DNA of 64,000 nt, taken from contig JADJSV010000002.1 of assembly GCA_016711505.1 (NCBI GenBank), positions 442,839 to 506,838 on the forward strand. Direction: 5' to 3'. A model generated the notes under the pieces. That model was not told where the DNA came from. It made no database searches and saw only the letters and a list, made by a program, of their open reading frames with translations. Below are positions 12,257-44,692 of the stretch, one piece after another; within the stretch, counting starts at the first letter, position 1; each line of letters begins with the position of its first letter. The DNA is from Bacteroidota bacterium. Lineage in GTDB: Bacteria; Bacteroidota; Bacteroidia; AKYH767-A; 2013-40CM-41-45. The translations under genes and the position numbers were made by a program.

Positions 12257-12262
12257 TCAGAC

Positions 12263-13303: not shown

Positions 13304-13310
13304 GATAGTG

Positions 13311-15221: not shown

Positions 15222-15309
15222 TGATCCCAATGGGAATGAACAAAAACAATGCAGCAGCGACGCAGATAACAGTTATGGGCTGTATCAAACGACATGAGCT
15301 TCTTTTCGC

Positions 15310-16108: not shown

Positions 16109-16145
16109 TTGTCGCTTCCTGAAAGGTTGTACTTTTAATTGATTA

Positions 16146-16213
16146 GGTCAAGGGTCAAAGGTCAAGGGTTAAACTGCGAAAGTAGTTTGACCTTTGACCC
16201 TTGACCCTTGACC
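16146..16213. repeat. Palindrome built from GGTCAAG/GGTCAAA heptamer arrays
   Basis: GGTCAAGGGTCAAAGGTCAAGGGTTAAACT-GCGAAAG-AGTTTGACCTTTGACCCTTGACCCTTGACC, directly 3' of mscL. Same architecture as the elements at 2193 and 12157 but with a different word. Confidence 0.65.
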
Positions 16214-16320
16214 ATTTTACACAATGTCTTACACTTTTACATTCACATGTAAGGTTTCTCTCTGTTTTAAAGCATCCCGACTTCGTAAAGTTGTTCTTTA
16301 GCTTCTGCAAACGCACGCAA

Positions 16321-19190: not shown

Positions 19191-20547
19191 TTAATTAGCA
19201 GACATTTCAAATAATTTACTTTCCAGATCTTTACTTTCTAATTCTGCGACTTTTGCAATTTGTCTGTCAATATTTAAAAACTGTAATGATAGCCAAGCTA
19301 TTGAAATAAATATTGCAAAGGCGAAAAGTGAAATTTGCCAGTTGAAATTTTCTCTGATAGGTCCAATTAAAGCTGCAAAAGTCATTTGTCCGAGGTTTGC
19401 AATTGTCATGAATAATGTAAATTGACTTGTTGATACTTTTTCCAACAACATTGCATTGCAATGGCAAGATGCCAATGCTGGCAAAAGTGTACAATATATT
19501 TTGAGTAATCATAAAAGCAAAAATAAAGTTTCTGCTAGGCCAATAAGATTTTGATAAGACCAGTGTCATTATTAAAAAGATCGAACTTAAAAAGTAAAAG
19601 TTCATCATACGTTTTTTGCCAAACTTGTCAATCAAAAGTCCGCCAATTAGCATTCCTACAATCCCTCCAACTAGTTTTGCAGATGCAAAATAATTTGAGT
19701 AGTCCACATTTGTCCAGCTTAATTCTTTTACAGTAAAAATAGGAAGTAGTGTGGAAACATATTTAAAGCCACCTTGGCTGATGAATAAAACTAAAGCGAT
19801 GATTAGTGAGTTTCGTAATCTAAATACGCTGAATAAAGATTTGAAAATGTGTCGCCAACTTTCTATTTGTAGATTTTTTGTTAAAGGTGATGCTTCGCCT
19901 GAAGTCCATGGTACAATTTTCTCACCCTGTCGTTCTCTTAAAAATAAGGGCACAAGCATAATAATGCCAATAGCAACAGCCATCATTAGTATCGCAATAG
20001 TAAAATTGTATTTGTTTAATAGCCAACTTCCGAGAGCCAATGAAAGAGACATTCCAATAATTTTTGAGCCCCACATCAAGCCATTTGCTTTTGCTTGTTG
20101 GTCGGCAGGAATAATATCTACTGCCATACCATCGGTAGCGACATCCTGGAATGCCCCGAAAAACGAAACAAAAAAACCGGCAATCATCAATTGGTCAATA
20201 TTGTTTAAAGGTTCAGGGATATAAGCCAAATAGATACAACTTACCAGTAAGCCTATTTGTCCTAAAAGTATCCAAGGTCTTTTTCTTCCCATGGGCAGAT
20301 AATTATATCGGTCCATTAGAGGTGCTACAATAAATTTAAAGCTCCATGGCAAAACTGTTACTACGGCAAAGCCTGCTATTTCTCCGGGTGATTTACCATT
20401 CATTACCATCCAGGCCGGTATGCCGAAAGAGAGCATTCCTTCAGGAACGCCTTGCGCACAATACAATACTATAGAAGTGATATAACGTAAAAAAGAATTA
20501 TCGGTAAGCGATGTTTTTCTTTTTGTTTTAATTGTCTGGTAATTCAT
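19191..20547 (-). pseudogene. ampG: AmpG-like MFS (muropeptide) permease with two close frameshifts near the C-terminus
   Basis: Multi-TM MFS body (..LYCAQGVPEGMLSFGIPAWM.., ..FQDVATDGMAVDI..). Three frames must be chained: ..YTFASIGI | LAIAMQCCWKK | VSTSQFTLFMTIANLGQMTFAALIGPI... Shift sites are at about 19462-19470 and the T5 run 19437-19441. Confidence 0.6.
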
Positions 20548-27820: not shown

Positions 27821-30800
27821 CTATCTGACAACAATTCTTGTTGTCTTTGTTACCACCTCATCAGCCGATAATGTAACCATATAAACTCCTTTGGTCACTC
27901 CGGTAATATCAAATTCTCTCGTGTTCATTCCGGTTTCAGAAGTGAATACTTCATTTGAAATGATGTTCCCAATAAGATCAGTGATCCTGATCAGATATTT
28001 CGTTTCAGTTTCTGAATTGAACGTTACAAGAATTTTTCCTGAAGTTGGATTTGGATATACTACTATTTCAGAGTCGGTGATCTCAATTTCATCGGCAACA
28101 GTCCGACACGACAGGTTCACTGCAACATTCAATTGTCCCGGTTGTGAAGGTCCGCATAAGCTGTTAGCATTTGCACGAATTATTGAAGAAGGATTCAGCG
28201 ATGTATTGTAATTGACTACTGCGCTTGTTCCCGAAGGTGAAATTGATGCGCCACCTGTAACTGACCATGAATACGAAGTCGCACCTGAAACCGGTGCAAT
28301 GTTATAAGCAACGGATGAATTTGTTTTACAGACAGACGTAGGGCCGCTGATCACAGGAGCCGCAGGACGTGATGTAATTGTGAAACACCGCGCAGGTCCT
28401 GTTCCACAGGCACTGTTTGCAGAAACGCAGATCGTTGACGAATTGGATGTGAATGCAGGCGTAAATCTGACGTTAATAGACAATCCGTTTGGTGCAGTAG
28501 AAAGAATCGTAACACCTGCCGGAACTGTCCAGTTATAAGACGTTGCCGTTGGTACCGGAGCAATTGAATATGTAACCTCTGATAGTCCGCAAACGCCGCT
28601 TCCCGGTCCTGATATCGATCCAGGTTGAGCAGGAGTAGAGTTCACAGCGAATGAACGCGAATACGAACCACAACTGTTTGCATCAGTAATAGTAACCATT
28701 CCTGAAGTCCATGCCGGACCAAAGTTGATGGTCGCTGTTGTAGTAGATGCAGTCGTAACTGTAGATGCAACTGTTGCATCACCTGTAACTGACCATGTAT
28801 AAGATGTTGCACCAACAACAGTATTCATTGTATAGACTCCTGTTCCGCCTGCACAGACAAACGTCGGACCTGTAACCGGATTAGAGTGAGCAGGGATACC
28901 TGTGATTGTCATACCGCGGACAGCACTTGATCCTTTACAGTTCACACTGCGAACTTGAATTGAACCTTGTCCGAAGTTCGAAGGAATGCTGACTTGTATC
29001 GTATTTGTTCCTTGTCCATTTACAATAGATGCACCTGTACCTGTTATTGTCCAGTTGAAACTTGTTGCATTAGGTGCAGAAGTGGAATACGTATGTATTC
29101 CCGGACCACATGGTAGTACCGGACCTGCAATTACAGCAGGAACCGGAGGCGCCACTGTGTTCACAGGAATGTTCAGACAAGATGTTGCAGAAGTGCCGCA
29201 AACATTTACAGCAGCTACACAAATAAATCCGTTAGCATATGCAGGACCAAAAGCTACAGTGATACTGTTTGAAGTTGAAGACCCTGTTGCTCCTGTAGGA
29301 AGTGTCCAGATATACGAAGATGCTCCCGGAACCGGTGTCACCGAATAAACAATTCCTGATGTACTTCGGCATGCACCTGCCGGACCGGAAATGGATCCCG
29401 GAACAATGATCGAACCACCTGTTGTGTTAACAACAGCACTGGTTGAAGCAGTACATCCCTGGCTATCTGTAACTGTAACTGAATAATTTCCACCCGTTAG
29501 ATTATTTGCTGTTTGAGTTGTCTGTCCATTTGACCATAGATAACTATAGCTACCCGAACCACCGCTTGCATTTGCTGTGGCTGAGCCATCGCTTGATGAA
29601 CATGATGAAGGTGTAGTCGTTGTTAGTACTTCAACTTTTGTTGGTTGAGTCAGTGTAAGTGAAATTTCAGATGCACATCCATTGGCATCAATAACAGTGT
29701 AAGCCATCGTACCCGCAAACTGCGCGAAAGTACCTGTGCCGCTGTATGGTGATGTACCGCCACTTGCTGTCACATCAACTAATGTTGAACCTCCGAAACA
29801 TGATATAGAAGTACTGTTCGAAGCAGCCGCAATTAATTGCGACGGTTCGGTTACAGTGATCATTGTAGATGTAGAACATCCGTTTGCATCAGTGAGAGTA
29901 TAGTTATACATGCCTGCACCAACATTGAAATCTCCCGTTCCTGAATATGGTTCAACACCACCGGAACCGGAAACAGAAATGGTAGTTTCACCACCATAAC
30001 ATGCGATAGCTGTTGCGGAAGAGGATGCAACAAACTGTGCAGGTTCAGTTATTGTGAGAGTAACTTCAGAAGTACAACCTTTTGCATCTGTTACAACAAA
30101 AGTTTGTGTTCCAGCCGTTACAGTATGAGCGCCATCGCCGGAGTAAGGCGATGTTCCACCACTTGCCGTGATGGTAACTGTTGTTGTGCCGCCATAACAA
30201 TTGATATTTCCCTGTGAAGTTGATAGAGTTAATGATTCATCTACCGTCAACACTCCCGGTTCATATACGAGAATATAATTGGCAGGAGTATCAGCTTGTA
30301 CCAGATCACTCGGAACGATCTGATAAGTTCCACCTGCAAGATTACCACTGCCAACATTCACATTCATGTTGTCAAGAATAGTAAATACCGGTCCGCTTGC
30401 AATCACGTTACTGTCTGCATCTTCGTATTGGTAGATGGAGTTGGTGAACGTGTAAGCCGGTTGAACACCGTTGCAACCTGCAGTGGTATCGTTTGCTTTT
30501 ACAGTAAGTGTTTCAGGAACGATCGTAAGTGTTCCTAGTCCGTAAGAGATGTCGAAGTTTTCCGATAACAATACACCCGGAGCGATCACCCAGTTTCCTA
30601 CTGTGATACCGGTGATCATGTTCATGGAAGTATAACCAACAATCGAATCATTCGGATCTCCATACACATCGAGTGAATCGACGATCAGTACAGCGTATTC
30701 GTTTGATTCATCGTTGAAGGTATTGCTGTTCACGGCTTGCTTTCCATTTACGGCTTGCTTACCATTCACTGCTTGTTTACCATTCACTGCTGCTTTACCA

Positions 30801-33800
30801 TTCACGGCTTGCTTACCGTTCACGGCTGCTTTACCATTCACGGCTTGCTTGCCATTGTATAGTACAGCATTGGTTGAATCGATATGGTAATCGAAGATCG
30901 ATGCCGGATGTACCGGAATGTAATAGGTCGTGTCGTAAGAGATACTGTTCACTGCTTGTTTTCCATTGACAGCTTGTTTACCGTTGACAGCCGCTTTTCC
31001 GCTGACAAGGAAACTCATGTTCTGGAAATCGGCAGCACTCAGTCCGTTGACGGCTTGTTTACCATCGACCAGTACAATTGAAGTTGACATGGCAGACTGA
31101 TGTTCTTCCGATAATGAATCATGGAATAAAAGTTGTTCGGAAGGATCAATGTTAGAATCATCGTAAACATATGTGAACTGAATATCTTTTCCATTGATGG
31201 CATCACCATAAACCAATGTCATATCGTTTGGTGTGACCATGATCGGCATTCTTTCAATAGTAAGAACACCATCCACAAACTGATAGTTGAAGATTGCAGA
31301 AAGCGCGAGTGACTGCGGATTGGAAAGATCCGTCACCGCAGAGTGACCGCGTCTGAAATATAAACCGATATCGGAAGTGTTGGTTGCATTGGTAGAGTAG
31401 GTAACGTCTGTCAAGCCAAGCGTAGATAAAGTTTGTCCTGTGCTTGCCATTGGAACATCGTTGATCGTAACATCAAAAGAATAAGCAGGAATGACCTCGC
31501 CATATTTTTTGTTAACGCTGTTGATGGTCACTTTTACGTTCTGCGGAATCGTGCTGAGTAAATAAATAGAATCACTTACTCCACCATCCAGACCACTTGG
31601 AGCGATCGGTGGATTGTAAACCACCAGTGGCGGGTTACCTAAGAAATCAGGAAGTTCCACAGTAAGTTGATTGCCGACCACTGTAGCCGGAATTGTATCG
31701 TATTGGAAGATGACCGAAGCATCAGGAGCAATGTATTCACCATTGATGACAAGCGTGATCGGTTGTAATCCCGGTGTGAATGCAGAATCTGCTAAATGAT
31801 AATCATCGATGATCGGGAACGGATTAGCAAATGTCTGCAGCGCAGCATCGGCCTGAATGAATCCTGCTCCTGTTGCTGCATCATATCCTGCACCATCCAT
31901 GTTGATGGCAGTCGATTTCAAGAGTGCTTTCATTTGTGCACCGTTGAATGTTTCGCCTGCATAATATTTTTCTTTGGCTTCAATCAAAAGAGCAGCCACA
32001 CCCGCAGCATGCGGAGCAGCAGCAGAAGTACCGAAGAAGTTAGGGAAAAGATCGTTGTCAATATTCACGCCGCCGAAATTCACAGTTGTATTCACGCCAT
32101 TCGGAGCGCAGAAGTCAGGCTTCTGTCTGTCGATACCATCGATAAGCACTCCACCTCGTGAAGAGAAGGAAGCTACTGTCGGAGGATTCACACCATAAAC
32201 AGGGGTATTAGTATACAACACTGCACCGATCGACATAGCGCTTTCAGCATTTGCCTGTCCGATGACAGTTGCTGTTCCCTGATTGTATTCATTGATCACA
32301 CCTTCACCACGGAAGATGACATATTTGAAACGAACATTGCCAACACCACTCTTGCGGGTGATAATGATGTTTGCTCGCGAAGTAACCTTCACAACTAATG
32401 GAAGGATCTCACGTGGATCACCATCGATGTTGTTACGATTGACGCCAAACCGACGTGCACCGAACTGATCGACCAGGAAGATGTCAGGGTCATTCTGAGC
32501 ACCAACGATCTCACCGATAGAATAGAAATCATCATTCCATTGCAGAGCGATCGTATAAGTTCCTTTTGGAAGTGTTACGCTTTGATAGAAATCACCACCA
32601 CCGAAATCGTGTGCAGCACCGGCATAACCGGCAGGGGCTGCGATAGGAGTGAAATTGCCTTCGTAGGATTTTATTCCGAAGTTACCTGCCGAAGTAAAGT
32701 AGTTCACACCTGTAGCAGAAACATCTTCCACAGCTTGTGCAATGACACCATCGCGGAAGAATGGTTCAGTGATGTAGGTGATGTCATCGACAATTACTTT
32801 ACATCCTGAATCACGAAGTGATTTGATGCCATCAGCAAAGTTGCCGGCACTGATGAAACCGGAACGGAACATCAGTTCAGCATTTGGAGCAACATCATGA
32901 ATGATCTGCAGCATGGCACGACCTTCATCAGATCCTGTTCCATAAGGATATTCTTCAGAAACAATTACGTCTGTGTTGAAATTCGGATTAGCAGCACCCG
33001 GAAGATCACCATTCTGAACATCACGTTCAGCAGGAGTAGGGCTACCGAATTTAGTATTGTAACTATCAGAAAGTACACCCACTTTTACACCATCACCGGA
33101 AACTTTCCAGGCTTGTTTGGCTTTGTGTGACATCTGAGCTGAATCACCTTGCGATGTTGTCAAACCGGTTGATGCCAGCGCAAAATTTCCATTGATTGGA
33201 GTGTAGTATGGCCGGGCATAATTTATCAAAATTGGCAATGAATCGAGCTTCGGTAAATTTGCGATCGGATACATTCCTGTTATGATCAGAGTAGTGTCGC
33301 CATTATCGATCAAACTATTCATGCCATAAGCAGGAGTTTGCAATAAAGCAAGAAGTGTATTGTACTGACCTACGTTTGCAATTACCTCGATCAATACTTC
33401 GCCCTGGATTTCATCTATCTTAAAGATATTATTCGCAGCAGTAGTATCGACGAGAGAATCAGGATATGAATACAATTGAGTCAACTCAGATCCGATCAGA
33501 TTATCGATCGTGTCATTCGTTGGTGGTTCATAATATGGAATGATACAATTTGTAACGAATACTTTCAGTTCTGTTGTCGCTGTACATCCATTACCATCAG
33601 TAACAAAATAATTGTATGTTCCGGTAACAAGGTTCAGAGTATCGCTTCCTGTATAAGTGTAAGGCGCAACACCATTCAACGGAACAAGATTTACATCACC
33701 ACTTGTTGCTCCGTTTTCTGCACAAACAAATAACGTATCGCCTGCAGATGTTGTAAGTGATAAATTACATACGAAAGAACAGTTAGTACTGAACGATGCA

Positions 33801-36800
33801 CCTGCATCTTTTCCTGCGCTCCAGAAAGTATTCATGTCGTTCACATTGTCAACCTGAATACATGAAAGTGAAGGATTTCCTGTTGCATTGAATGAAATCA
33901 GGTTTGAATTGTTTCCATTCTGGATATTCAAACTTGAAAGGTTGTTTTGATTTACAAGTAAGTCCGATAAGCTTGGAGTAGAGGAAAGATCAAGTTCAGT
34001 TAAATTATTATTTTGACTTATGAACTGCGTGATACCCGGATTCTGACTCATATCGATTGAAGTCAAGCCCGGATTGTTTGAAATGTTTAATGTCGATAAC
34101 AGTGGATTGTTCGTTACATCTAAACTTGTCAATTGATTACCCAGTGCAATAACAACAGTTAAGTTTGCATTATTTGTTAAGTCAAGTGATGTAATGTTAT
34201 TGAATGGACATTCAAGCCAGAATAAATTTGTATTTGAGCTGATGTCGATTGTCGTAAGCTGGTTAATTCTACATACTAATTGTTGAAGTGCAGTATTCGA
34301 AGAAACGTCTAATGTTGTTAGTTGATTACTTCCAACATCAAGATAATTCAACTGTGTATTTGCAGAAACATCAATTGTTGTTAACTGGTTATTATAAACC
34401 TGTAAAACCGTTAATGATGTGAAAGCTTCAATTCCGGTCAGATCTGAAATTGACAGGCCGTTTACATCCATATTACCGTTGAAAGCTAATGCTTCCGAGC
34501 ATTCAATTTCTAAATTGCTGTTTGTGTTGATGCTTGCATTTGCAAGCAAAGCATTTTTGAAGTTGACGTCAGGGATATTCACATAGCATACACAATTTGT
34601 TCCTGTAACAACTCCACCCGGAGAGACCCAGTTTGATGTCGCACCTTCAAGGTCAAAGTTGTTCAGTATTGCATTGTTGCCATTGCCGCTTACATCAGTA
34701 TCATTTATAACACTTACGTTACTTTCATTAGCAAAGCCTTGATTAAAATGAAAGGCAGCAGCTAATCCGGGTTGAGCACCGATCTCACAGTTCATATTGT
34801 CAACGATCTGCGATTGAGATCTGCTAACATTCCAGATTCTGACTTCATCTAATGCACCATCCAGAAATTCATTACCAAATGATTTTCCGATCTGAAGATT
34901 ATTTGCAGTCGGAACATTTAAAGTGCCCGGAGTATCTTGTCCGCGTAACACACCATCGGTATATATCGAACGTGTTGTACCATCGTACGTGGCAGCAATG
35001 TGATGCCAGTTACCATCAAGTATATTTGGAATCATCACTATAAGATCATTCGCCCACCAGTAATTAACCAGTTGTGTTGGTCCGGCAAATCTGATCGCAT
35101 TAGATTCATTCTGTGTTCCGAAGTTTCCATATCCTATGAATCCTTCGTTGAAGTTAATTGTATTTGGTTTGATCCATGCTTCAAGAGTATAAGGGCTGTT
35201 GCCGGTTGGAAGATTGTCGACTGTGTTTAATGAAACAAAATCATTAACTCCATCAAAATCCAGAGCAGCTGCCGGTGTACAACCTGAGTGAGTATTAATA
35301 TCTGAATCATCACAATCATTATAGTCATTCACAAGGTTTCCAGGTGCAAAGCAAGGAGATGTAACAACTATAGAGTTATTAGGGTCTCCAAAGCCATCAC
35401 CATCCAGATCATAATACATTGTACCTGCATAACCACCATTCCAGTTAGAAACGTTGAAGTCTCCTGAAAGTGAAAAAGAGATCAGTTGACCAATGTTATT
35501 GGTCGAAGTAAAATCAGTAAGAATGTTGACTCCTGGATTCTCGGTGTTAGCTGTACCGTGATCGAAAGGATAATAATTTATTAAATTCGGTTCATAATAG
35601 ACATAAGCAGTCATTTTGGATCTGATCTCTGCTTGTGTTTTTGCTACATCCCAGATACGTACCTCGTCCATTTTTCCGGAGTACCACTCAAGATTGAAAT
35701 CAGGCCATCCGCCTAGTCGGCCAACATTAAATCCTGATGTTAAATCTCTGGAGTAAGTGTCAGTTATGGATTCGTCAACTCTTCCATTTACATAGATCTT
35801 ATAATTCATCCCTGCTCTTACCACTGCAACATGTGTCCATTGATTGAGCGAGATTGAAGTTGTTCCGGAAACTACTAAATAACCAGGAGCTCCGGCTTCT
35901 GCAAGTTCTAGCATAAGATTTCCGGAATCAAATTTAAGTCCGAACCAATTCCCCGCACCACCAGATTCACTCGTTCTGTTTGTGATAATATATCCGTTAG
36001 TTGTTGCATATGGGTGAATCCATGCTTCAATAGTGAAATCATTTGTTCCAAGATTGAAGTCCTGCATTTCTACATAGCTGGTAGCACCATCAAATGAAAG
36101 TGAATTATTTTCACTGATATTTCCATTACAGTTTTGATCTGTTCCGTCGCAAATTTCAAGAGCACCGGGACCTTCACTGTAACTATTAGGGCTGCAATCA
36201 TTACTGAAAAATGAACTTCCACAAGGCGTAGCCGGCAGTACTCCAAAACCATCGTTATCATAATCATAATAAGTTGTATGAAGATCATCGCAATCCAGAT
36301 TATTAACTACATATCCCGGAACAGGAGCAACATCAATGATCTGACTTGCATTGTCTCCAAATCCATCACCATCAACATCTGCATAGAAAGTTCCCGGTAA
36401 ATTACAATTTGTACCTGTAACAACACCGCCACTGGTGATCCAGTTTGAAGTGTTTCCGTCAAGTGTAAAATTGAAAAGACTTCCATTCCCGTTGAGTGCC
36501 GCATCTGCTAACTGATCAATCATTGGTGTTGTGTTATCACTTTCTCCTATACCTTGATTGAAATGATAATTGGCCAACAAGTCTGATTGCGGTGCAAGAA
36601 TTTCACAAGCATAATGATCTGTAATTTCCTGGGCCGTTAATGCTCTTGACCAGATACGAAGTTCATCCATAGATCCCGGGTAGAATCCTGAAGTTCCTAA
36701 TCTAGATCCGACATATATTGAACTGCCAAGTCCACCGCCTATTGCAGTAACTGATGCCACAAATGCACCATTTACATAGATAGATTGTAAATTAGTTTGG

Positions 36801-38305
36801 TCGTCATAGGTACAAGCAATATGATTCCATGTGCCAAGAACCAATGGACCTGTTGATACAGAAGTGTTATCTCTCAGCCAAAATTCAAGATTCTCAGTTG
36901 ATCCTTCTAAACTAGGATCGGAAATTGAAGCAGCACTTTCCCATACAAAAGCATTTTGACTTGCATCAGCTTTCACCCAAACTTCAATTGTGAAAGAGCT
37001 TGTGCTAATTGTTGGAATCGCTACATAATCATCTATACCATCAAAGTGCAATGCAGAACCCGGACCGCCGGAAGTTAAATCACTGCCATTACAATCCTCA
37101 TCGATAGAGTTGTTTGGAATCTCTGTTGCACCCGGATTGATTAGAGGGTCATTGTCATTACAGTCTGCACTGCTTTCAGTATAACCTGGAGGTATAGTAC
37201 AAACGCTACCTACAAGAATAGAATTATTCAGATCTCCATAAGTATCTTCATCACCATCTGCATAATATGTCAGAAGTGTAATGGGTGTACATGAAGTTCC
37301 TGAAACAACTCCGCCAACTTCAACCCAATTTGATTCTGTTCCTGAAAGTGAACTGTTTTGAATTACACCATTACGATTATTTCCGGAAGCATCGTTTACA
37401 ATGTCTACTGAAGGATTGTTTGATCCGGCAATTCCTTGGTTCAATGGGTAGTATGCTACCAGACCCGGAGCGTTTGTCGGGATCTCGCAATTCATATTAG
37501 CACTTATTTCGGTCTCGCACAATGCACGATTCCAGATTCTGACTTCGTCAAGAGTTCCGTCTAATGCATATCCTGAATTGTCATTTCCAAGGATAAGATC
37601 GAATATTGTATCATTGACTGTTCCTGTATATGGCACTGTTGCTTCAAGAGCCCCATTGACATACAACTTCATGTCGAAGCCATCATATGTACCTGCAACA
37701 TGGTACCATTCTCCGGGAGTAATAGTAGTAGTTGAATTCGCATCATGCCATCCCCAGCCGTTTACAAAGAATGTAAAATTTGTACCGCCGCCACTTAAGT
37801 TTAATCCGTATCCATCTGCAAAAGAAGACGGTTCGGTTTTCATGATGATACCTGCATAGTCGTCAGCAGTTCTCGGCTTAACCCAACATTCAATTGTCAA
37901 TTCAGTTGGGTCTAAAGCGTCATCATCAGGAACAATTACAAGATCATCAACACCATCTAAACTTAAGGCAGCACCCGGTATTGGAGTCGCAGCTTCCCCG
38001 ATCTGAAAATCAGAGAATGATGTAAGTTGTCCTGCTGTGATCGATAAACTTGTTCTGTTGAACACCTGGAAATCTATCCAGTCAGGTGCATCATATTTTT
38101 TTACAATAAAGTTATTGAAGTCTGCATTCAGATCAACATCTGCAGCATCCCAGTTGAATGTAACAACTAAGTCCTGAAAATTCAGTCCTGCATTGGTAAG
38201 ATTCCAGAAACGGTTTACTGCTTTATTCGGGTCAATTCCTGAAGAAGCAATTTCCGGATGCACACCAGGCTCTGTACGTGCTATAATTCCACCATCAGGG
38301 AACAA
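27821..38305 (-). CDS. Giant gene 1, intact C-terminal 3494-codon ORF fragment
   Basis: Uninterrupted 10.5-kb ORF. Contains LamG domains (..LDEVRIWNRAL..), D-x-D-G-D-G-F-G repeats, LRRs, S8 motifs (GVLSDSY, DEGRAMLQIIHD, GTSAAAPHAAGVAALL), SprB repeats (CYGG..ASGGTSPYSG), PKD-like repeats and the T9SS tail. The TTG start at 38305 is an artefact of the upstream frameshift. Confidence 0.85.
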   Translation of the reverse strand: MFPDGGIIARTEPGVHPEIASSGIDPNKAVNRFWNLTNAGLNFQDLVVTFNWDAADVDLNADFNNFIVKKYDAPDWIDFQVFNRTSLSITAGQLTSFSDFQIGEAATPIPGAALSLDGVDDLVIVPDDDALDPTELTIECWVKPRTADDYAGIIMKTEPSSFADGYGLNLSGGGTNFTFFVNGWGWHDANSTTTITPGEWYHVAGTYDGFDMKLYVNGALEATVPYTGTVNDTIFDLILGNDNSGYALDGTLDEVRIWNRALCETEISANMNCEIPTNAPGLVAYYPLNQGIAGSNNPSVDIVNDASGNNRNGVIQNSSLSGTESNWVEVGGVVSGTSCTPITLLTYYADGDEDTYGDLNNSILVGSVCTIPPGYTESSADCNDNDPLINPGATEIPNNSIDEDCNGSDLTSGGPGSALHFDGIDDYVAIPTISTSSFTIEVWVKADASQNAFVWESAASISDPSLEGSTENLEFWLRDNTSVSTGPLVLGTWNHIACTYDDQTNLQSIYVNGAFVASVTAIGGGLGSSIYVGSRLGTSGFYPGSMDELRIWSRALTAQEITDHYACEILAPQSDLLANYHFNQGIGESDNTTPMIDQLADAALNGNGSLFNFTLDGNTSNWITSGGVVTGTNCNLPGTFYADVDGDGFGDNASQIIDVAPVPGYVVNNLDCDDLHTTYYDYDNDGFGVLPATPCGSSFFSNDCSPNSYSEGPGALEICDGTDQNCNGNISENNSLSFDGATSYVEMQDFNLGTNDFTIEAWIHPYATTNGYIITNRTSESGGAGNWFGLKFDSGNLMLELAEAGAPGYLVVSGTTSISLNQWTHVAVVRAGMNYKIYVNGRVDESITDTYSRDLTSGFNVGRLGGWPDFNLEWYSGKMDEVRIWDVAKTQAEIRSKMTAYVYYEPNLINYYPFDHGTANTENPGVNILTDFTSTNNIGQLISFSLSGDFNVSNWNGGYAGTMYYDLDGDGFGDPNNSIVVTSPCFAPGNLVNDYNDCDDSDINTHSGCTPAAALDFDGVNDFVSLNTVDNLPTGNSPYTLEAWIKPNTINFNEGFIGYGNFGTQNESNAIRFAGPTQLVNYWWANDLIVMIPNILDGNWHHIAATYDGTTRSIYTDGVLRGQDTPGTLNVPTANNLQIGKSFGNEFLDGALDEVRIWNVSRSQSQIVDNMNCEIGAQPGLAAAFHFNQGFANESNVSVINDTDVSGNGNNAILNNFDLEGATSNWVSPGGVVTGTNCVCYVNIPDVNFKNALLANASINTNSNLEIECSEALAFNGNMDVNGLSISDLTGIEAFTSLTVLQVYNNQLTTIDVSANTQLNYLDVGSNQLTTLDVSSNTALQQLVCRINQLTTIDISSNTNLFWLECPFNNITSLDLTNNANLTVVIALGNQLTSLDVTNNPLLSTLNISNNPGLTSIDMSQNPGITQFISQNNNLTELDLSSTPSLSDLLVNQNNLSSLNIQNGNNSNLISFNATGNPSLSCIQVDNVNDMNTFWSAGKDAGASFSTNCSFVCNLSLTTSAGDTLFVCAENGATSGDVNLVPLNGVAPYTYTGSDTLNLVTGTYNYFVTDGNGCTATTELKVFVTNCIIPYYEPPTNDTIDNLIGSELTQLYSYPDSLVDTTAANNIFKIDEIQGEVLIEVIANVGQYNTLLALLQTPAYGMNSLIDNGDTTLIITGMYPIANLPKLDSLPILINYARPYYTPINGNFALASTGLTTSQGDSAQMSHKAKQAWKVSGDGVKVGVLSDSYNTKFGSPTPAERDVQNGDLPGAANPNFNTDVIVSEEYPYGTGSDEGRAMLQIIHDVAPNAELMFRSGFISAGNFADGIKSLRDSGCKVIVDDITYITEPFFRDGVIAQAVEDVSATGVNYFTSAGNFGIKSYEGNFTPIAAPAGYAGAAHDFGGGDFYQSVTLPKGTYTIALQWNDDFYSIGEIVGAQNDPDIFLVDQFGARRFGVNRNNIDGDPREILPLVVKVTSRANIIITRKSGVGNVRFKYVIFRGEGVINEYNQGTATVIGQANAESAMSIGAVLYTNTPVYGVNPPTVASFSSRGGVLIDGIDRQKPDFCAPNGVNTTVNFGGVNIDNDLFPNFFGTSAAAPHAAGVAALLIEAKEKYYAGETFNGAQMKALLKSTAINMDGAGYDAATGAGFIQADAALQTFANPFPIIDDYHLADSAFTPGLQPITLVINGEYIAPDASVIFQYDTIPATVVGNQLTVELPDFLGNPPLVVYNPPIAPSGLDGGVSDSIYLLSTIPQNVKVTINSVNKKYGEVIPAYSFDVTINDVPMASTGQTLSTLGLTDVTYSTNATNTSDIGLYFRRGHSAVTDLSNPQSLALSAIFNYQFVDGVLTIERMPIMVTPNDMTLVYGDAINGKDIQFTYVYDDSNIDPSEQLLFHDSLSEEHQSAMSTSIVLVDGKQAVNGLSAADFQNMSFLVSGKAAVNGKQAVNGKQAVNSISYDTTYYIPVHPASIFDYHIDSTNAVLYNGKQAVNGKAAVNGKQAVNGKAAVNGKQAVNGKQAVNGKQAVNSNTFNDESNEYAVLIVDSLDVYGDPNDSIVGYTSMNMITGITVGNWVIAPGVLLSENFDISYGLGTLTIVPETLTVKANDTTAGCNGVQPAYTFTNSIYQYEDADSNVIASGPVFTILDNMNVNVGSGNLAGGTYQIVPSDLVQADTPANYILVYEPGVLTVDESLTLSTSQGNINCYGGTTTVTITASGGTSPYSGDGAHTVTAGTQTFVVTDAKGCTSEVTLTITEPAQFVASSSATAIACYGGETTISVSGSGGVEPYSGTGDFNVGAGMYNYTLTDANGCSTSTMITVTEPSQLIAAASNSTSISCFGGSTLVDVTASGGTSPYSGTGTFAQFAGTMAYTVIDANGCASEISLTLTQPTKVEVLTTTTPSSCSSSDGSATANASGGSGSYSYLWSNGQTTQTANNLTGGNYSVTVTDSQGCTASTSAVVNTTGGSIIVPGSISGPAGACRSTSGIVYSVTPVPGASSYIWTLPTGATGSSTSNSITVAFGPAYANGFICVAAVNVCGTSATSCLNIPVNTVAPPVPAVIAGPVLPCGPGIHTYSTSAPNATSFNWTITGTGASIVNGQGTNTIQVSIPSNFGQGSIQVRSVNCKGSSAVRGMTITGIPAHSNPVTGPTFVCAGGTGVYTMNTVVGATSYTWSVTGDATVASTVTTASTTTATINFGPAWTSGMVTITDANSCGSYSRSFAVNSTPAQPGSISGPGSGVCGLSEVTYSIAPVPTATSYNWTVPAGVTILSTAPNGLSINVRFTPAFTSNSSTICVSANSACGTGPARCFTITSRPAAPVISGPTSVCKTNSSVAYNIAPVSGATSYSWSVTGGASISPSGTSAVVNYNTSLNPSSIIRANANSLCGPSQPGQLNVAVNLSCRTVADEIEITDSEIVVYPNPTSGKILVTFNSETETKYLIRITDLIGNIISNEVFTSETGMNTREFDITGVTKGVYMVTLSADEVVTKTTRIVVR
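30728..30856. repeat. Seven tandem 18-bp units encoding NGK(Q/A)AV inside giant gene 1
   Basis: The plus strand shows ..GTTCACGGCTTGCTTTCCATTTACGGCTTGCTTACCATTCACTGCTTGTTTACC.. with synonymous variation between units. The protein reads YNGKQAVNGKAAVNGKQAVNGKAAVNGKQAVNGKQAVNGKQAVNS. A second, shorter cluster lies at about 30945-31075. Confidence 0.85.
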
Positions 38306-38404
38306 TCACCTGTACATTTAAAGATACAGGTGCATATTGTGTTGCATCACCGATTGGATAATCTTTTACTCCTGTTGAAGTAAAGTCTCTTTGTAAATTT
38401 CCAA

Positions 38405-40234
38405 CTACGTAAGAAGTTGAAGATGCATTGTGATGGTAGCAGAAGCACCAATAATTACATTGCTGAGATTTGTGATCAGCTTACCATTATTAAAATTAAG
38501 GTCTTGATTAATTGTTTGTGTTCCCTGAATAACGACGTCAAATGGATTGAGAATAGTCAACTTTTCAATTGAGCCTTGACCGAAAATGGTTTGCTGAAGA
38601 CTTCCTGTCATAGAAAGATCTGTAAATTCAATTGATCCTCCATTAGTCAGATTCAAGCCACTGAATGTCATGTCGCCTCCTGTTAATGTCGCAAGTGGAT
38701 CTACAATCAATTCATTTGCATTGATAACAGTTTGAATATTGAAAGTTCCATTCTTAAAGACAAGCATTCCGCTGGCCATTGATAGGAATGATGAGCCCCC
38801 AAATGTAAGGGTGCCCGGAGTAGCAAAAGTAAATAACCCATTATTGTCAGGACAATAGAATGTTCCATTGAATGTATTATCCCAGCCGGTCGCAACATTT
38901 ACAATTCCAAAATTATTATTGAATGTACCGTCATTTGTAAATACAGATAGATTTAAAATAGTGTTTAGAGTTGACCCTGTAGCATTGAATGTGTGATTGA
39001 CAGTTCCTGTTGAAGTATTGTTCAGATTAAAGTTATTGATAGTTACCTGATCTATACCATCGTGAAACAAAAAGTTCACGATATTGTTATTGATCATTTC
39101 TCCTGCCATATTATATTCAATCAATGCGCAGCAAGAAACGTCAGAGTTTTCAATATTTATTACACCGTTATTTGTAACAGACAAAAATAAGTTTGCTCCA
39201 TTGGCAGTATTATTTCCTAAGTTTAAAGTTGCATCACTGTTAATTATCATCAAACCTTGACCGGTCAATGTGCCATTTTCAACTATAACAGTTCCGGAAA
39301 CATCAAGATCAGTACCTGGTCCGTCAGCAATCACAATTCCTGGTCCTGTTACATGTAATGTTGCACCGGTTTGAACAACGATTTGATCTGCGGTAATTCC
39401 ACCATCAACCGTAACCGTAAATCCACTTTGAAGAGTGATAGTATTGTCCCCATAATTCGGAGTACTTAAAGCAGGTTGCCAAGTACAGCCATCAAAATAT
39501 TCCCAGGTAGAAAGAGCGCCCCAATTGCCACTGGCAATTGAACGAAAATCACCTGTTGGAATACATGCTTCAAAGTTTTCTCCGATCTGAAATTCACTGA
39601 AGGATGTGATGTTAAAGGCAGTCAGAGATGTTTCTGTTATGTTACCTACTGTAGGAAGTGTCCAGGTTGGATCATTGTATTTTGCAACGATAAAATTGTT
39701 GAAGTTAGTGCTGCCATCAACTTCAGCAAGGTCCCATGAGAAATTAACATCACATGTATTAAAACTTAAACTGTGATTAGTTATGTTCCAGACACGGTTC
39801 ACACTTAACGCCTGGTCAATTCCTGAATTGAGAATGTCGGCATGGTCTCCTGCTGTTGTATGTGCATTAATAAATCCGTCACCACTACCGTCATTTGGAA
39901 GATCGAATGTCAGTGCGATAGGTGCGTAAGCATTTTCATCACCAATAGGTAATTGTACTGGACCCGGAGTTGCATATGCAAAATGGTGCCGTAGATTACC
40001 ATTGACATATGAATTCACAGATGGATCCATAATAACAGCACCAGGCCCAAGAATCAATGTGTTCGGACCGGTATTAATTAATCCAACACCCATATTCAAA
40101 GTATTTACAATGGTCTGATTTCCATCAAGTGTTACTCCGGATTCATTATAGATAGACATATTTGCAATACTTCCTGATCCAAGAATAGTCTGTTGTCCAA
40201 GTGATGTAAAAGAAAATCTTGCCAGTTGAATCAA
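38405..40234 (-). CDS. Giant gene 1 fragment (third W-rich / beta-helix module)
   Basis: ..GDFRSIASGNWGALSTWEYFDGCTWQPALSTP.. followed by N/G/T-rich beta-helix-like repeats. Colinear with the paralogue. Confidence 0.7.
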   Translation of the reverse strand: MIQLARFSFTSLGQQTILGSGSIANMSIYNESGVTLDGNQTIVNTLNMGVGLINTGPNTLILGPGAVIMDPSVNSYVNGNLRHHFAYATPGPVQLPIGDENAYAPIALTFDLPNDGSGDGFINAHTTAGDHADILNSGIDQALSVNRVWNITNHSLSFNTCDVNFSWDLAEVDGSTNFNNFIVAKYNDPTWTLPTVGNITETSLTAFNITSFSEFQIGENFEACIPTGDFRSIASGNWGALSTWEYFDGCTWQPALSTPNYGDNTITLQSGFTVTVDGGITADQIVVQTGATLHVTGPGIVIADGPGTDLDVSGTVIVENGTLTGQGLMIINSDATLNLGNNTANGANLFLSVTNNGVINIENSDVSCCALIEYNMAGEMINNNIVNFLFHDGIDQVTINNFNLNNTSTGTVNHTFNATGSTLNTILNLSVFTNDGTFNNNFGIVNVATGWDNTFNGTFYCPDNNGLFTFATPGTLTFGGSSFLSMASGMLVFKNGTFNIQTVINANELIVDPLATLTGGDMTFSGLNLTNGGSIEFTDLSMTGSLQQTIFGQGSIEKLTILNPFDVVIQGTQTINQDLNFNNGKLITNLSNVIIGASATITMHLQLLT

Positions 40235-40245
40235 TCCATTATTTT

Positions 40246-41304
40246 CTAATGTACTTCCGTAAAATTCAATTCTGCAAGTCCATTCAATTCTGCATCGGAA
40301 TAAATCCGATATGTACCTGAATGTGTGCCAAAAGAATTTCCTAGTCTGAGTTCTGAAGCTGATTGAAGTTCTACAACACCAAGATTGTTAAATTGCATTT
40401 CTTCATCATAGATCAATCCATCGATTCCAGTATCAATCCATATAGTACCGGAAGGCATGTTATTAAACTGGGAGTTGGAACTAATCGAACCCAGGAAACT
40501 TGTTGAAGCATTAAAATATAAGTTGTCGTAATTGTTGAAAAAAGTATTAGCTCCTCCGAAGGTAATGGTTGCATTTGAGTTCCAGGTTATCGGTGTGTAA
40601 TTATTAATAGTCAATCCGTCATTAAACGAATAACTTCCACTCGACATTTCTATAGTAGAACCTGGCAGGAAGTCAATAATTCCCGGTCCATAAATATCAC
40701 TACCTAAAAGAAAAGTACTTCCATCTTCGAATTGTGCATTTCCAAGTATATTAAAGGTAGCAGCTGAGAACTCAATTGTACCGGAACATTGTAAATCTAT
40801 TCCGGCTCCATCAGCAATGGTAAATTCCATTTCTGTTACCAATAAACTACTGCCTGGATTAATTATTAGTTGGTCAACTACAAGAGGCGAAGTATTTCCA
40901 GGTACCATATAATGGTCGGTAATTGTAATTTGTTCAGCATTTGATGCTACCGGATAATCAATAGCAGGTACCCAGGAATTTCCGTCAAATGTTTCCCAGT
41001 TGGAAATATCGTCCCACGCGCCATCACTCACAGTTCTATAGTCATTTACTGCATACGAAGCTACTTCTCCTACCTGATAGAATCTATCTGCAAAAGTAGT
41101 AACACCGGAAACATCAATTGAAGTTGGTTGTGGGTTAGAAGATGTTGCAATGCTCCAAATACTGGCATCACTGTAATAAGAACCTACTCCAAAATTTGAA
41201 GTAATTGCATCAAGATCAACATCAGTTGCATCCCAGTTTAATGTAAAATCAGCAGTAGAAAATATCTGATTCGCACTCTGATCAATTGACCAACAACGAT
41301 TCAC
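40246..41304 (-). CDS. Giant gene 1 fragment (second module)
   Basis: ..NDYRTVSDGAWDDISNWETFDGNSWVPAIDYP... Its end ..ELNFT joins GSTLENNGLIQLARFSF.. of the next fragment after a 1-nt correction at 40257-40258. Confidence 0.7.
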   Translation of the reverse strand: MNRCWSIDQSANQIFSTADFTLNWDATDVDLDAITSNFGVGSYYSDASIWSIATSSNPQPTSIDVSGVTTFADRFYQVGEVASYAVNDYRTVSDGAWDDISNWETFDGNSWVPAIDYPVASNAEQITITDHYMVPGNTSPLVVDQLIINPGSSLLVTEMEFTIADGAGIDLQCSGTIEFSAATFNILGNAQFEDGSTFLLGSDIYGPGIIDFLPGSTIEMSSGSYSFNDGLTINNYTPITWNSNATITFGGANTFFNNYDNLYFNASTSFLGSISSNSQFNNMPSGTIWIDTGIDGLIYDEEMQFNNLGVVELQSASELRLGNSFGTHSGTYRIYSDAELNGLAELNFTEVH

Positions 41305-41401
41305 ACTTAAATCACTTATAATACTTGATGTTCCAACTTGCGGATGATCATTTCCCAGGAATGGATACGGAATTCATCACCAAGAAGTAAACCATTTATA
41401 G

Positions 41402-41641
41402 TTAATGATACCGAGTGTAAACGTTGTCGTCACCAACAGGAAAATTTAATGTAGTTGTACCTGCAGGGAAACTTCTTTGGATAAAACCATTTACATAGCT
41501 ACTTGAAGAACCTGAAGAAATATTACCGGTTGATAAGATGCTTATTGTATGAGCAAATGTTCTGATCTTTCCTGTTGTCAATGTAAGAAGTCCGTTGAAA
41601 CTTTGAGACCCACCTAATGTAATTCCCACTCGGATTAGCAA
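41402..41641 (-). CDS. Giant gene 1 fragment (short bridging piece)
   Basis: ..ITLGGSQSFNGLLTLTTGKIRTF..SSSYVNGFIQRSFPAGTTTLNFPVGDDNVYT.. bridges 41523-42599 and 40246-41304. Confidence 0.6.
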   Translation of the reverse strand: MLIRVGITLGGSQSFNGLLTLTTGKIRTFAHTISILSTGNISSGSSSSYVNGFIQRSFPAGTTTLNFPVGDDNVYTRYH

Positions 41642-42599
41642 CAGTCATATTTAAAATTGATCCATTACCATTAATTGTTTGGTTAGAAGCACCGACAACT
41701 TGAAGATTGGTAGTATTTAATGTACCATTGTTTGTGAGTGTCGGACCGGAGAAAGAAATATTGTTTGCTGTCAACGTTGCACTATTATTCACAACTAAAG
41801 TACCGCCCACATTACAGTTTCCGGTTAATGATAAAGTTCCTGCGGATACTGTCATCGCTGATCCTGTATTCGTGTAAACGCTAACAAAGCTATCGAAAGT
41901 AGATGTGCTTGTAGTGGATTTAGTAATGCTTCCCCCTGTATTATTCCAGAATGTAAATGTCGCAGAAGGATCACCATTGAAATGTAGAAAAGAAGGAGCA
42001 GATAAATTGAATGCACCATTGTTTTGAAGTGTGATAGTACCACCATTATATGCAATATTGTTTGCTGTCCCCGGCCATGTCATTGTACCATTGTTGGTGA
42101 AAGTATGAGTACCTGAAAGAAACATACTACCTGTACCTGTCCAATTGAAATTTCCACCGATATTATTTGTCCAGTCACCATTGCCTGTAATTGTGCCTGA
42201 ATTAAAATTAAAGACTCCGCCACTGGTAATTGATACAGTTCCTCCTGAGCCATTGCTCAGTGTTGGCCCGCTTAAATTACATGTCCCTATGATCGTAAGT
42301 GAATTTCCTACACCCCCATTCAGAGTCAGAGAACCGGAACCGGATACTGTTAAAGTTCCGCCTGAATTAACCACTGTATTATCTGTAGTTACATTGGAAT
42401 TGATAGTAACTGTGTGAGTGCTTAGAATTGTAATTGTGCTATCTGAAAAAGATGGTGATGTAATAGCGCCTATCCATCCGCAAGCTGTGAGTGTTTGCCA
42501 TATCGCCGGATTACTCCAGGAACCTGAACCCGCTGTACGATAGGTATATGTTGCACCCATAGCATAAGAACGAACCCAGTTAGAAGTTGTCCCACTCAA
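41523..42599 (-). CDS. Giant gene 1 fragment (first module)
   Basis: ..GTTSNWVRSYAMGATYTYRTAGSGSWSNPAIWQTLTACGWIGAITSP.. parallels paralogue ..GTTSNWVNSIVFQPTNIYRTITSGNWSDPAIWETQYGSCWVPAVTAP... Confidence 0.7.
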   Translation of the reverse strand: MSGTTSNWVRSYAMGATYTYRTAGSGSWSNPAIWQTLTACGWIGAITSPSFSDSTITILSTHTVTINSNVTTDNTVVNSGGTLTVSGSGSLTLNGGVGNSLTIIGTCNLSGPTLSNGSGGTVSITSGGVFNFNSGTITGNGDWTNNIGGNFNWTGTGSMFLSGTHTFTNNGTMTWPGTANNIAYNGGTITLQNNGAFNLSAPSFLHFNGDPSATFTFWNNTGGSITKSTTSTSTFDSFVSVYTNTGSAMTVSAGTLSLTGNCNVGGTLVVNNSATLTANNISFSGPTLTNNGTLNTTNLQVVGASNQTINGNGSILNMTVANPSGNYIRWVSKFQRTSYIDNRKDQNICSYNKHLINR

Positions 42600-42637
42600 T
42601 GCAAATCCGTTTAACGTACCGTTGTAGGCGTTACTGC

Positions 42638-43198
42638 TCAGATCAAGAAGTGTTGTAAGACCCGGATTATTTTGATCTGCAATTCCTGATTGAATGGATA
42701 CATTACTACTAAGCCTGTTTGTGGAGTTATCTCACAATTCATGTTTCCTTGTATCTGAACTTGTGAACGTGATACATTCCATATCCGTAATTCATCTAAA
42801 GTTACTGCAGTATATCCTTGTAAAATATTATTCATCAATCCCGCACCGATTGAAGTCAAAGACATAGGTTGTGGACCAAGTCCGGTTGTACCTGTGCCAT
42901 CAGAAATTCCATCCAGATAAAAAGTAACGGCGTTTCCTGATTTTGTAACTGCAACATGATGCCAGTTACCATCATTAACGTTAGTATTGCCGGTGAGCTG
43001 ATGTAGTGATATACCATCACCAACAGCAAGTCGTAACTTTCCGGTGTTTAGTGCAAACTGCACATAATTGTTATTTATTGCTTCCCCATACAAAGATGGT
43101 TGCGTTTCCATCAGTTGTCTGAATCCAGGTTTCGATTGTAAAGGTTCCGGAATAAGGGACGACTGTGTTAGTAGAAACATAATCGTTTGTACCATCAA
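42638..43198 (-). CDS. Giant gene 1 fragment (N-terminal LamG domain, C-part)
   Basis: ..EAINNNYVQFALNTGKLRLAVGDG..NWHHVAVTKSGNAVTFYLDG..LDELRIWNVSRSQVQIQGNMNCEI... Confidence 0.7.
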   Translation of the reverse strand: MMVQTIMFLLTQSSLIPEPLQSKPGFRQLMETQPSLYGEAINNNYVQFALNTGKLRLAVGDGISLHQLTGNTNVNDGNWHHVAVTKSGNAVTFYLDGISDGTGTTGLGPQPMSLTSIGAGLMNNILQGYTAVTLDELRIWNVSRSQVQIQGNMNCEITPQTGLVVMYPFNQELQIKIIRVLQHFLI

Positions 43199-43310
43199 AA
43201 TGCAATGCGTTTGAACCTTGCGCTTTTAATTCTGATGCGAAAGAAAATGTTAAAATAAAAAGTGTGGACAATACAAAATTTGCCCAATTGAATGGTGTGG
43301 GGTTTTTCAT
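43071..43310 (-). CDS. Giant gene 1 fragment (signal peptide and start of LamG domain)
   Basis: MKNPTPFNWANFVLSTLFILTFSFASELKAQGSNALHFDGTNDYVSTNTVVPYSGTFTIETWIQ.. closely parallels the N-terminus of the 58242 gene. Confidence 0.75.
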   Translation of the reverse strand: MKNPTPFNWANFVLSTLFILTFSFASELKAQGSNALHFDGTNDYVSTNTVVPYSGTFTIETWIQTTDGNATIFVWGSNK

Positions 43311-43665: not shown

Positions 43666-44644
43666 ATGAAAATCATCACCTTCTTTGTTTCACTTCTGCT
43701 TATTTTGAATTTCAGCTCTCTTCTTTTGAAAGCTGAAGAGATTTCAACGCCTGATACTGTCAATGTCGGATTATACATTACAAGTATTCATGACATAGAT
43801 TTCCGGCAGAAAGAATATTCCGTGAATCTGTGGCTATGGCTAAAATATAAGAACAGAGATTTTGATTTCATGAAAAATCTTGAAGTACCAATGGCAAAGT
43901 CTGTCGAAAAATCGTATGCAACTGTCGATACACTTGAAGATGGCCGGATCTATTTGCTGATGAAACTTCAATGTGTGATGAAAGGAACGTGGAAGATAAA
44001 TGATTTCCCATTCGACAGACAAAAATTACGATTTGCAATTGAGAATTCTATGTACGATTCTAAAGCATTGGTGTTTTCTGAAGATACTGTTGGGAAACAT
44101 TATGGTAAATATTTTTAATGGGATGGGAGAAAGACAGTTTCAATATTAAAACAGAAATGAAACGATATGAAACTGCTTTCGGTGACCCTAGAACTTGATA
44201 AACCGGAATCAGAGTACAGTAGTTATAAAGCTACAATTGTTGTCCATAGAAATTCATGGGAAATGTTTTTCAAGATATTTTTAGGAATGTATATCTCGTT
44301 TCTCATCTCCACGATATGCTTTTTGTCCACCTGACAATATGGAATCACGACTGGCTTTAAGTGTTGGTTCTTTGTTTGCTGTAATCGGTAACAAGTATAT
44401 AATTGATTCTTCACTTCCGGAATCCAATACGTTTACAATGGTCGATACACTGCATGGACTGACATTGCTTTATATTTTTCTTGTGATCGCATCTTCTGTT
44501 TATACGCTACGGCTTGTTCGTGCAGGATTTGAACACCGTTCTGAAAAACAAAACCGGTTGATGGGGTGGATGTTATTACTTTTTTATGTAGCGTTGAATA
44601 TATGGGTTATCCTGCAATCATATAATACGATTGCAACTGGATAA
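43666..44644 (+). pseudogene. Prokaryotic pentameric ligand-gated ion channel (Cys-loop receptor family) homologue, three frameshifts
   Basis: Signal peptide. Ligand-binding domain ..VNVGLYITSIHDIDFRQKEYSVNLWLWLKYKN.. with the loop motif ..INDFPFDRQKLRF... Then, in other frames, ..LMGWEKDSFNIKTEMKRYETAFGD.. and ..LELDKPESEYSSYKATIVVHRNSWEMFFKIFLGMYISFLISTICF.. (M1). Then ..PPDNMESRLALSVGSLFAVIGNKY.. (M2), M3 and M4. Shift sites: T5 44112-44116, C3 44186-44188, T5 44320-44324. Confidence 0.7.
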
Positions 44645-44692
44645 AAAATATGAGACAACTTATTTCCTGCATTGTTTAATTTATTATTGAAA

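Follow-up and report, generated by a model that had tools for sequence, protein, structure and literature searches.

A mosaic core shared by two giant tandem genes of a Bacteroidota bacterium supports recurrent gene conversion

Why should two giant genes that resemble each other only loosely along most of their length carry, deep inside each, a block of about 3.5 kb in which they are strikingly alike? The question is raised by a 64,000-nucleotide (nt) stretch of contig JADJSV010000002.1 from an uncultured Bacteroidota bacterium (assembly GCA_016711505.1), hereafter the window, in which genes A and B each contain one copy of such a block, the shared core. An original prediction, made from the DNA letters alone, described the block as near-identical and ascribed it to recent duplication or gene conversion. 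Our analysis indicates that A and B are very probably an ancient tandem pair in which gene conversion has recurred, within tracts bounded by the limits of homology. We refer to the copies of the core in genes A and B as winA and winB; the genes and their cores lie as follows.

27821-38305, minus strand: giant open reading frame (ORF) A, 3494 codons or amino acids (aa)
47806-58242, minus strand: giant ORF B, 3478 codons or aa
30242-33775, minus strand: shared core, copy A, aa 1511-2688 of A, 1178 aa
50005-53544, minus strand: shared core, copy B, aa 1567-2746 of B

The repeat itself is real and goes well beyond what chance would produce. A single blastn high-scoring segment pair joins window positions 30241-33776 to 50004-53545 over 3550 columns (85.8% nt identity, E = 0), and the two encoded cores are 90.5% identical in protein sequence. 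The shift in offset between the copies, from 19763 to 19775, is due to small in-frame insertions or deletions (indels). A 136-nt run reported as identical is exact (31704-31839 = 51479-51614), and a longer one of 200 nt lies beside it (31860-32059 = 51635-51834). Outside the block, similarity falls to the domain level, as had been claimed: a global codon alignment gives about 25% aa and about 40% nt identity on the N-terminal side and 30-60% aa identity on the C-terminal side. Pfam searches confirmed that leucine-rich repeats (LRR) in A face MopE and HYR domains in B before the block, and that SprB/PKD_6 repeats follow it in both genes on the C-terminal side.

Within the core, similarity is far from uniform. 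Segmentation by maximum chi-square found three breakpoints (scores 59, 139, and 41) and thus a four-part mosaic, for which we estimated synonymous divergence (dS) by the Nei-Gojobori method and in sliding windows.

33158-33775, minus strand: segment S1 of copy A, partner 52933-53544; 612 nt, 76.3% nt and 85% aa identity, dS 1.45
31695-33157, minus strand: segment S2 of copy A, partner 51470-52932; 1463 nt, 95.1% nt and 96.3% aa identity, dS 0.17
30482-31694, minus strand: segment S3 of copy A, partner 50245-51469; 1213 nt, 78.1% nt and 86.5% aa identity, dS 1.65
30242-30481, minus strand: segment S4 of copy A, partner 50005-50244; 240 nt, 95.8% nt and 97.5% aa identity, dS 0.16

In roughly half of the core, therefore, silent sites are saturated (proportion of synonymous differences, pS, 0.6-0.9), and the description of the block as near-identical cannot be kept for its whole length. 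Because the proteins are alike in S1 and S3 although their silent sites are saturated, the similarity of these segments reflects purifying selection and not recent exchange; some 40-codon windows, including the region of VNGK(Q/A)A hexapeptides, have a nonsynonymous divergence (dN) of 0.02 at pS = 0.7-0.8. Protein identity of the module alone is thus no sign of recent exchange. The proteins of the predicted S8 protease region do differ at scattered residues only, as stated for what is now S2. Between A and B, S4 has 10 differences and S2 has 71, and those of S2 are unevenly spread: 31704-32059 holds only about three, which suggests that this sub-tract is probably the youngest event, nested in an older one.

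The hexapeptides just mentioned are encoded by tandem repeats within S3, between MBG domains. Repeat number is equal in A and B, and the repeat protein is nearly identical while its silent sites are saturated.

30706-31006, minus strand: 18-nt tandem repeats encoding VNGK(Q/A)A hexapeptides, partner 50475-50793

How old is the pair? We searched for the core in species-representative genomes, of which four or five related ones were usable. Two metagenome-assembled genomes (MAGs) carry it twice on one contig, LOS_Bin005 (copies L001 and L002) and Bjer_18-Q3 (L004 and L006); the contigs with two copies include JADJFC010000016. Unique flanks, 74-89% identical in protein between orthologs vs 25-44% between paralogs, sort the copies into two ortholog sets, winA with L001 and L004, and winB with L002 and L006/L005. 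Window positions 24000-58161 are collinear, gene for gene, with LOS_Bin005 contig JBMQEM010000071, where the tandem likewise runs B then A; in Bjer_18-Q3 the A and B orthologs lie on one contig in the same order as in the window. Divergence between the orthologs winA and L001 is about 0.5 in dS across S2-S4 (0.49 in S2).

These observations bear directly on the proposal that the core, or a whole gene, was duplicated recently and that the flanks diverged or were replaced afterward. A sharp-edged block of high similarity inside otherwise dissimilar genes is what such a duplication would leave. However, S1 and S3, together 1.8 of the 3.5 kb, are saturated, and both paralogs, each with its own type of flank and in the same order, are present in at least two other species-level genomes. 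Moreover, in a neighbor-joining tree of S1 (trees were built per segment, with 200 bootstraps), winA groups with L001 in 100% of replicates and with winB in 0%, the B orthologs coming together in only 47%. With the tandem pair collinear in the sister MAG, both orthologs present in a third MAG, and an ortholog dS of about 0.5, a recent duplication is excluded for practical purposes; we give it almost no credence.

A related architecture was seen in a Ferruginibacter MAG (L007, positions 2834-16780), where a 4649-aa gene has A-like LRR and B-like HYR/MopE repeats directly upstream of one core; this may represent an ancestral architecture or a fusion.

If the pair is old, S2 and S4 require another source of similarity, and the trees for the remaining segments are incongruent with that of S1. 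For S2, winA pairs with winB and L001 with L002, each at 100%; for S3, winA, L001, and L002 group together (100%) and winB forms a deep separate lineage; for S4, winA again pairs with winB (94%). Paralog dS in S2 and S4 (0.16-0.17) is about one third of the ortholog value (0.47-0.62). A GENECONV-like test on 1797 polymorphic sites gave its best winA/winB fragment (columns 619-2074) a score of 346, compared with a maximum of 81 in 5000 permutations (0/5000 reach the observed score, p <= 2e-4). These results support recent conversion between the two genes in S2 (1.46 kb) and S4 (0.24 kb), about 1.7 kb in total; S1 and S3 were not recently converted in this genome. Gene conversion, one of the two explanations first offered, thus holds for these segments and not for the entire 3.5 kb, and the checks suggested with it (sliding identity, GENECONV-like, and silent-site comparisons) returned clustered sub-tracts within the block.

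Could the silent sites of S2 and S4 simply evolve slowly, through selection or low mutation (codon bias, an embedded RNA, or an overlapping gene), with no exchange of DNA? The composition of the core might be taken to favor this, as its GC content at third codon positions (GC3) is 0.38-0.42 vs 0.24-0.29 in the unique sequence that flanks it in these genes. Yet between orthologs S2 and S4 have diverged as far as S3 has (dS 0.47-0.52), so silent sites there are free to change, and paralogs cluster by genome. The block matched no Rfam family and contains no credible or long ORF on the opposite strand. As the ortholog dS in S2 is normal, nucleotide-level constraint is ruled out there, and we judge an explanation without exchange to be extremely improbable. 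The raised GC3 may instead be a signature of GC-biased gene conversion, for which a published treatment offers a comparison (PMC4450053), since it is confined to converting pairs: the sister pair L001 and L002, which has the freshest tract, shows 0.44 in the core vs 0.25-0.30 in the flanks, and in single-copy or unconverted relatives the difference between core and flank is at most 0.085 (at most 0.06 in L005, L007, L009, and L010).

Conversion has recurred in the sister genome, where the tract is larger. From alignment column 612 up to the core's last codon (2.96 kb), L001 and L002 are 100% identical, a figure to be read as an upper bound because de Bruijn assemblers can merge near-identical repeats; upstream of that column they are 78% identical. 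This tract spans S3, in which A and B are only 78% identical in the window, and covers the MBG repeats as well as the subtilase-fold domain described below. It begins at the column of the S2 breakpoint (611/612), S2 itself starting at column 618, and in both genomes the start lies just past a 6-nt indel and the last mismatches.

33164-33188, minus strand: 5' breakpoint of S2, made up of a 6-nt indel that B lacks (AAATTT, 33183-33188) and, after it, the last mismatches

In the AlphaFold model of the core, this breakpoint falls in core aa 194-206, a linker of low confidence that joins a propeptide-like domain to the subtilase domain. The 3' ends also coincide: S4 and the sister tract both run to the last homologous codon, ..EPGVLTV, and in both A/B pairs similarity is wholly lost after ..GTGTTGACGGT(A/G). 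Beyond this point A-type sequence bears no relation to B-type sequence, and each is conserved between the species. Tracts that run until homology ends would fit what was measured in the tuf genes of Salmonella (PMC5485169).

The sharp outer boundaries of the block had been taken as a sign of conversion. Homologs of the core number more than 1,555 Bacteroidota proteins at E <= 1e-10, and most of the best 120 align over 88-100% of it. Since the module covers most of the core length in its homologs, the outer edges are, judging from these alignments, edges of a conserved protein module and of an evolutionary unit, not limits of conversion.

A third genome yielded a smaller observation of the same kind. 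L004 and L006 of Bjer_18-Q3 have a short fragment of excess similarity in the hexapeptide region (columns 2908-3126, permutation p <= 2e-4), which may reflect an older or smaller conversion, or constraint on the repeat.

We propose the following course of events. A and B would be old tandem paralogs encoding giant cell-surface proteins with a common 1178-aa module. Purifying selection would hold the whole module at about 90% aa identity, and silent sites would saturate wherever nothing else happened, as in S1 and S3. Episodic, non-reciprocal homologous recombination between the direct repeats, which lie 19.8 kb apart, would then overwrite sub-tracts; it is presumably RecA-dependent and may proceed by gap repair. 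After the split from the sister species, this would have affected S2 and S4 here and a single S2-S4 tract of 2.96 kb in the sister. On the 3' side, tracts would be limited by the abrupt end of the shared module and, on the 5' side, by the indel in the disordered inter-domain linker, beside the diverged S1, with the indel acting as a putative barrier. The similar segments S2 and S4 may serve as anchors that allow the divergent S3 to be replaced wholesale, as in the sister genome.

Several points weigh against this account. All of the sequences come from metagenome assemblies; the trees are neighbor-joining trees of short segments from only four or five related genomes; and the differences in S2, set against outgroups, are evenly balanced (30 vs 33) and favor neither direction of conversion. 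The shared breakpoints could derive in part from common ancestry of an older event, and the complete identity in the sister genome could be due in part to assembler collapse of near-identical repeats. Finally, the divergent S3 of winB could be an import from a third paralog or another lineage and not a surviving ancestral B type.

The first of these concerns, pressed further, would make the low-divergence tracts products of assembly or polishing, through merged reads or path switching between the copies. Mis-assembly was a reasonable risk to raise: contigs L003 and L005, from two relatives, stop inside the gene, L003 within the shared core, and a Joint Genome Institute (JGI) metagenome contig, L011, mixes A-type with B-type sequence. 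Upstream of the core, L011 is 99-100% identical to window copy A (96.9% over its whole 13 kb), yet about 1.2 kb of its S2 is 100% identical to winB, not winA, despite A-type flanks; its S3 and S4 are closest to L015, from a co-occurring species in a sibling sample; and many 1-nt indels separate it from the window. Path switching, however, leaves the pairwise divergence of A and B unchanged and could not create a contrast of 95% vs 77%, and the 71 differences that remain in S2 of the window show that it was not collapsed. Independent assemblies, produced in different studies, follow the same mosaic logic, and the normal ortholog dS in S2 (0.49) indicates that the tract is no artifact conserved or merged across samples. 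An assembly artifact is accordingly unlikely.

We considered L011 as proof of a strain-polymorphic conversion from B to A and down-weighted it, because its S3 and S4 resemble L015 and chimeric assembly is equally possible. L015 was also considered as the B locus of the window's species and was rejected, as it belongs to another species. A scan of metagenome contigs with the core returned three loci only, at 80-86% identity, none of them of the window's species; a homolog search with a B-specific query, which was swamped by MopE-repeat proteins, found no B locus of that species (best 69%). For the adenylate cyclase encoded nearby, an exact look-up matched no record.

That winB S3 branches outside every copy, A or B, from the four closest species could also suggest, together with the inter-lineage mosaicism of L011, that the mosaic arose mainly from imports, whether from strains, other species, or a third paralog, with the S3 of copy B as the foreign piece. 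The tree is explained just as well, with no import, if an ancestral B-type S3 has survived, though, and clustering of S2 and S4 by genome, which occurred independently in two genomes, needs exchange within the genome. The window contains no third copy, and only two loci per genome were found. Imports as the main source therefore seem improbable to us, and recurrent conversion within an old tandem pair is the reading we retain.

What, then, is the module that is being converted? Its homologs are typically 1,400-2,000 aa long, most have a type IX secretion system (T9SS) sorting domain, and they are named "S8 family serine peptidase" or "MBG domain-containing protein" in the source records. An AF2 model of the core (pLDDT 79.9) comprises a small beta domain, an alpha/beta domain resembling a propeptide, a subtilase domain into which a beta-sandwich is inserted, another beta-sandwich, and MBG repeats. 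Foldseek matched it to CspB/CspC, fervidolysin, ScpA, and subtilisins, each with a probability of 1.00; the best PDB matches were CspC, CspA, CspB, fervidolysin, and ScpA. On the strength of the model, the core contains a subtilase alpha/beta fold.

31796-33238, minus strand: subtilase-fold domain, core aa 207-650

The predicted assignment to family S8 stands in part. When the block was scanned alone, Pfam Peptidase_S8 matched only the C-terminal, Ser-bearing half (E = 1.6e-16), and a Pfam scan of the whole A and B proteins gave no Peptidase_S8 match. The nucleophile motif GTSAAAPH is present, with G582, T583, S584, P588, and H589 invariant, as are A363, G364, and N365 of the oxyanion Asn motif AGN (55 sequences). 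The other canonical positions differ. By motif order and predicted secondary structure, the helix equivalent to that of His64 (core aa 284-295) begins with Glu in an invariant DEGRAM motif, and the His of the subtilase H-G-T motif was not found at the His64-equivalent position; conserved His293 or invariant His389 might, judging by conservation, be candidate substitutes. The position of Asp32 corresponds to invariant Ser236, followed by Asp237, which is conserved in 70-90% of members. This placement comes from hhalign against subtilisin BPN', which misaligned the N-terminal half in global mode; of the local alignment, only the Asp32 strand and the Ser half could be used. The pattern of DEGRAM Glu and Ser at the Asp32 position holds across the roughly 120 best family matches examined, of more than 1,500 homologs.

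The proposal that conversion homogenizes the catalytic core is thus borne out insofar as S2 covers the subtilase-fold domain; "catalytic" is unproven, because the canonical Asp and His positions hold Ser and Glu. A bolder and less probable reading is that the module may not be a canonical serine protease and would represent either a new Ser/Glu-type catalysis on an S8 scaffold or a conserved, CspC-like pseudoprotease receptor. If so, it would point to a large, uncharacterized family of T9SS-associated Bacteroidota proteins with the subtilase fold, in which the Ser221 and Asn155 equivalents are kept and other active-site residues are non-canonical.

Around the core, the two genes are built from different modules. 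By Pfam, ORF A encodes four Laminin_G_3 domains, MopE motifs, an internalin-like LRR region, the core, SprB/PKD_6 repeats, and a T9SS C-terminal sorting domain (TIGR04183 / PF18962, E = 5e-9); ORF B encodes a putative signal peptide (recognized by eye), Laminin_G_3, HYR, a MopE motif, the core, and SprB/PKD_6 repeats. No signal peptide was found within ORF A, which is the 3' two-thirds of its gene: the sister-genome ortholog is a single ORF of 5349 codons with a signal peptide, and the counterpart in L015 is a 5180-aa gene. A less likely second reading of the locus would make copy A, lacking a signal peptide, a silent donor cassette for an expressed copy B. At the other end of gene B, comparison with the ortholog L002 shows a net -1 indel near 47875-47882 that splits ORF B from the ORF with its sorting domain; it is a sequencing error or else a frameshift that inactivated the gene recently.

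47327-47929, minus strand: 3' end of gene B in a different frame, with a PKD-like repeat and a Por_Secre_tail domain
42638-43198, 41523-42599, 40246-41304, and 38405-40234, minus strand: ORF pieces of the 5' part of gene A

Frame breaks of this kind are concentrated at 38.3-47.9 kb, where nine or more occur, with none or one in the neighboring 10-kb ORFs. The 5' part of gene A (38306-43310, minus strand) has its first approximately 1,640 codons scattered over frames -3, -1, -3, -2, and -1, and two net shifts, near 41.4 and 40.3 kb, recur in L011, an independent contig; the region could be a pseudogene, a split gene, or a systematic error. Between A and B (43666-47225, plus strand), three small genes are each broken into two ORFs in the window. 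They are intact in LOS_Bin005 (456, 302, and 326 aa) and in L015, where products of 456 and 346 aa are called.

Two features elsewhere in the window were recorded. A cobalamin riboswitch (RF00174, 104.9 bits) lies at 15316-15503 on the minus strand, upstream of an ORF at 13311-15230. Two 74-nt copies of a palindromic element, 92% identical and with AGTTCAAAG repeats around a GC-rich hairpin, lie at 2192-2265 and 12163-12236, both between convergent or adjacent genes; the element looks like a repetitive extragenic palindromic (REP)-like or terminator-like repeat.

The locus is a clean natural case, with its own internal controls, of the shaping of conversion tracts in bacteria: it has independent tracts in two sister genomes, a shared breakpoint at a linker indel, a shared end at the limit of homology, and a divergent middle segment that one genome has bridged and the other has kept. 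For practical work, trees built from this module will mix orthologs and paralogs, and the core is a hotspot for fragmented or chimeric metagenome contigs in these Bacteroidota. The process itself, classical concerted evolution, is already known; the example is new and unusually well resolved but otherwise ordinary. In duplicate bacterial genes, non-reciprocal transfer keeps copies closer to each other than to their orthologs, in tracts bounded by homology, as described for tuf (PMC5485169) and rrn (PMC8022953). The tufA/tufB genes of Salmonella and E. coli and the rRNA operons thus share with our pair intrachromosomal conversion between two copies and homology-bounded tracts. They are, however, homogenized along their whole length, whereas here conversion touches only part of a module within two multidomain genes of 10 kb, whose mosaic copies combine two converted segments with two saturated ones and have unrelated flanks.

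From the same phylum are the gingipain and hemagglutinin genes of Porphyromonas gingivalis (rgpA, rgpB, kgp, and hagA), which are likewise T9SS-secreted, modular protease or adhesin paralogs with near-identical segments; in P. gingivalis, identical repeat sequences in hagA, rgpA, and kgp break assemblies (PMC5266723). Those proteases belong to the C25 family of cysteine proteases and come from a host-associated pathogen, the parts in common are mainly adhesin domains, and the genes are dispersed, in contrast to the subtilase-fold/MBG module, tandem genes, and environmental bacterium studied here. In Neisseria, RecA-type conversion of the surface-protein genes pilE/pilS and opa gives rise to chimeric alleles. 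Conversion between the surface-protein paralogs babA and babB of Helicobacter pylori has the same outcome (PMC4552749). In all of these systems, silent or variant donors serve to diversify an expressed locus; in the pair described here, a conserved module is homogenized and the variable binding modules lie outside the tract. For the module, the best structural matches are the Csp subtilases of germination in Clostridia, namely CspB together with the pseudoproteases CspC and CspA (Foldseek E = 1.8e-16 to 3.5e-15 over 530-630 aligned columns), with which it shares the subtilase fold, a retained prodomain, and an inserted beta domain, and some Csp members lack catalytic residues. Sequence identity is only 13-15%, and the organism, secretion route, and domain context are different; the Bacteroidota family keeps the Ser motif and has the invariant DEGRAM.

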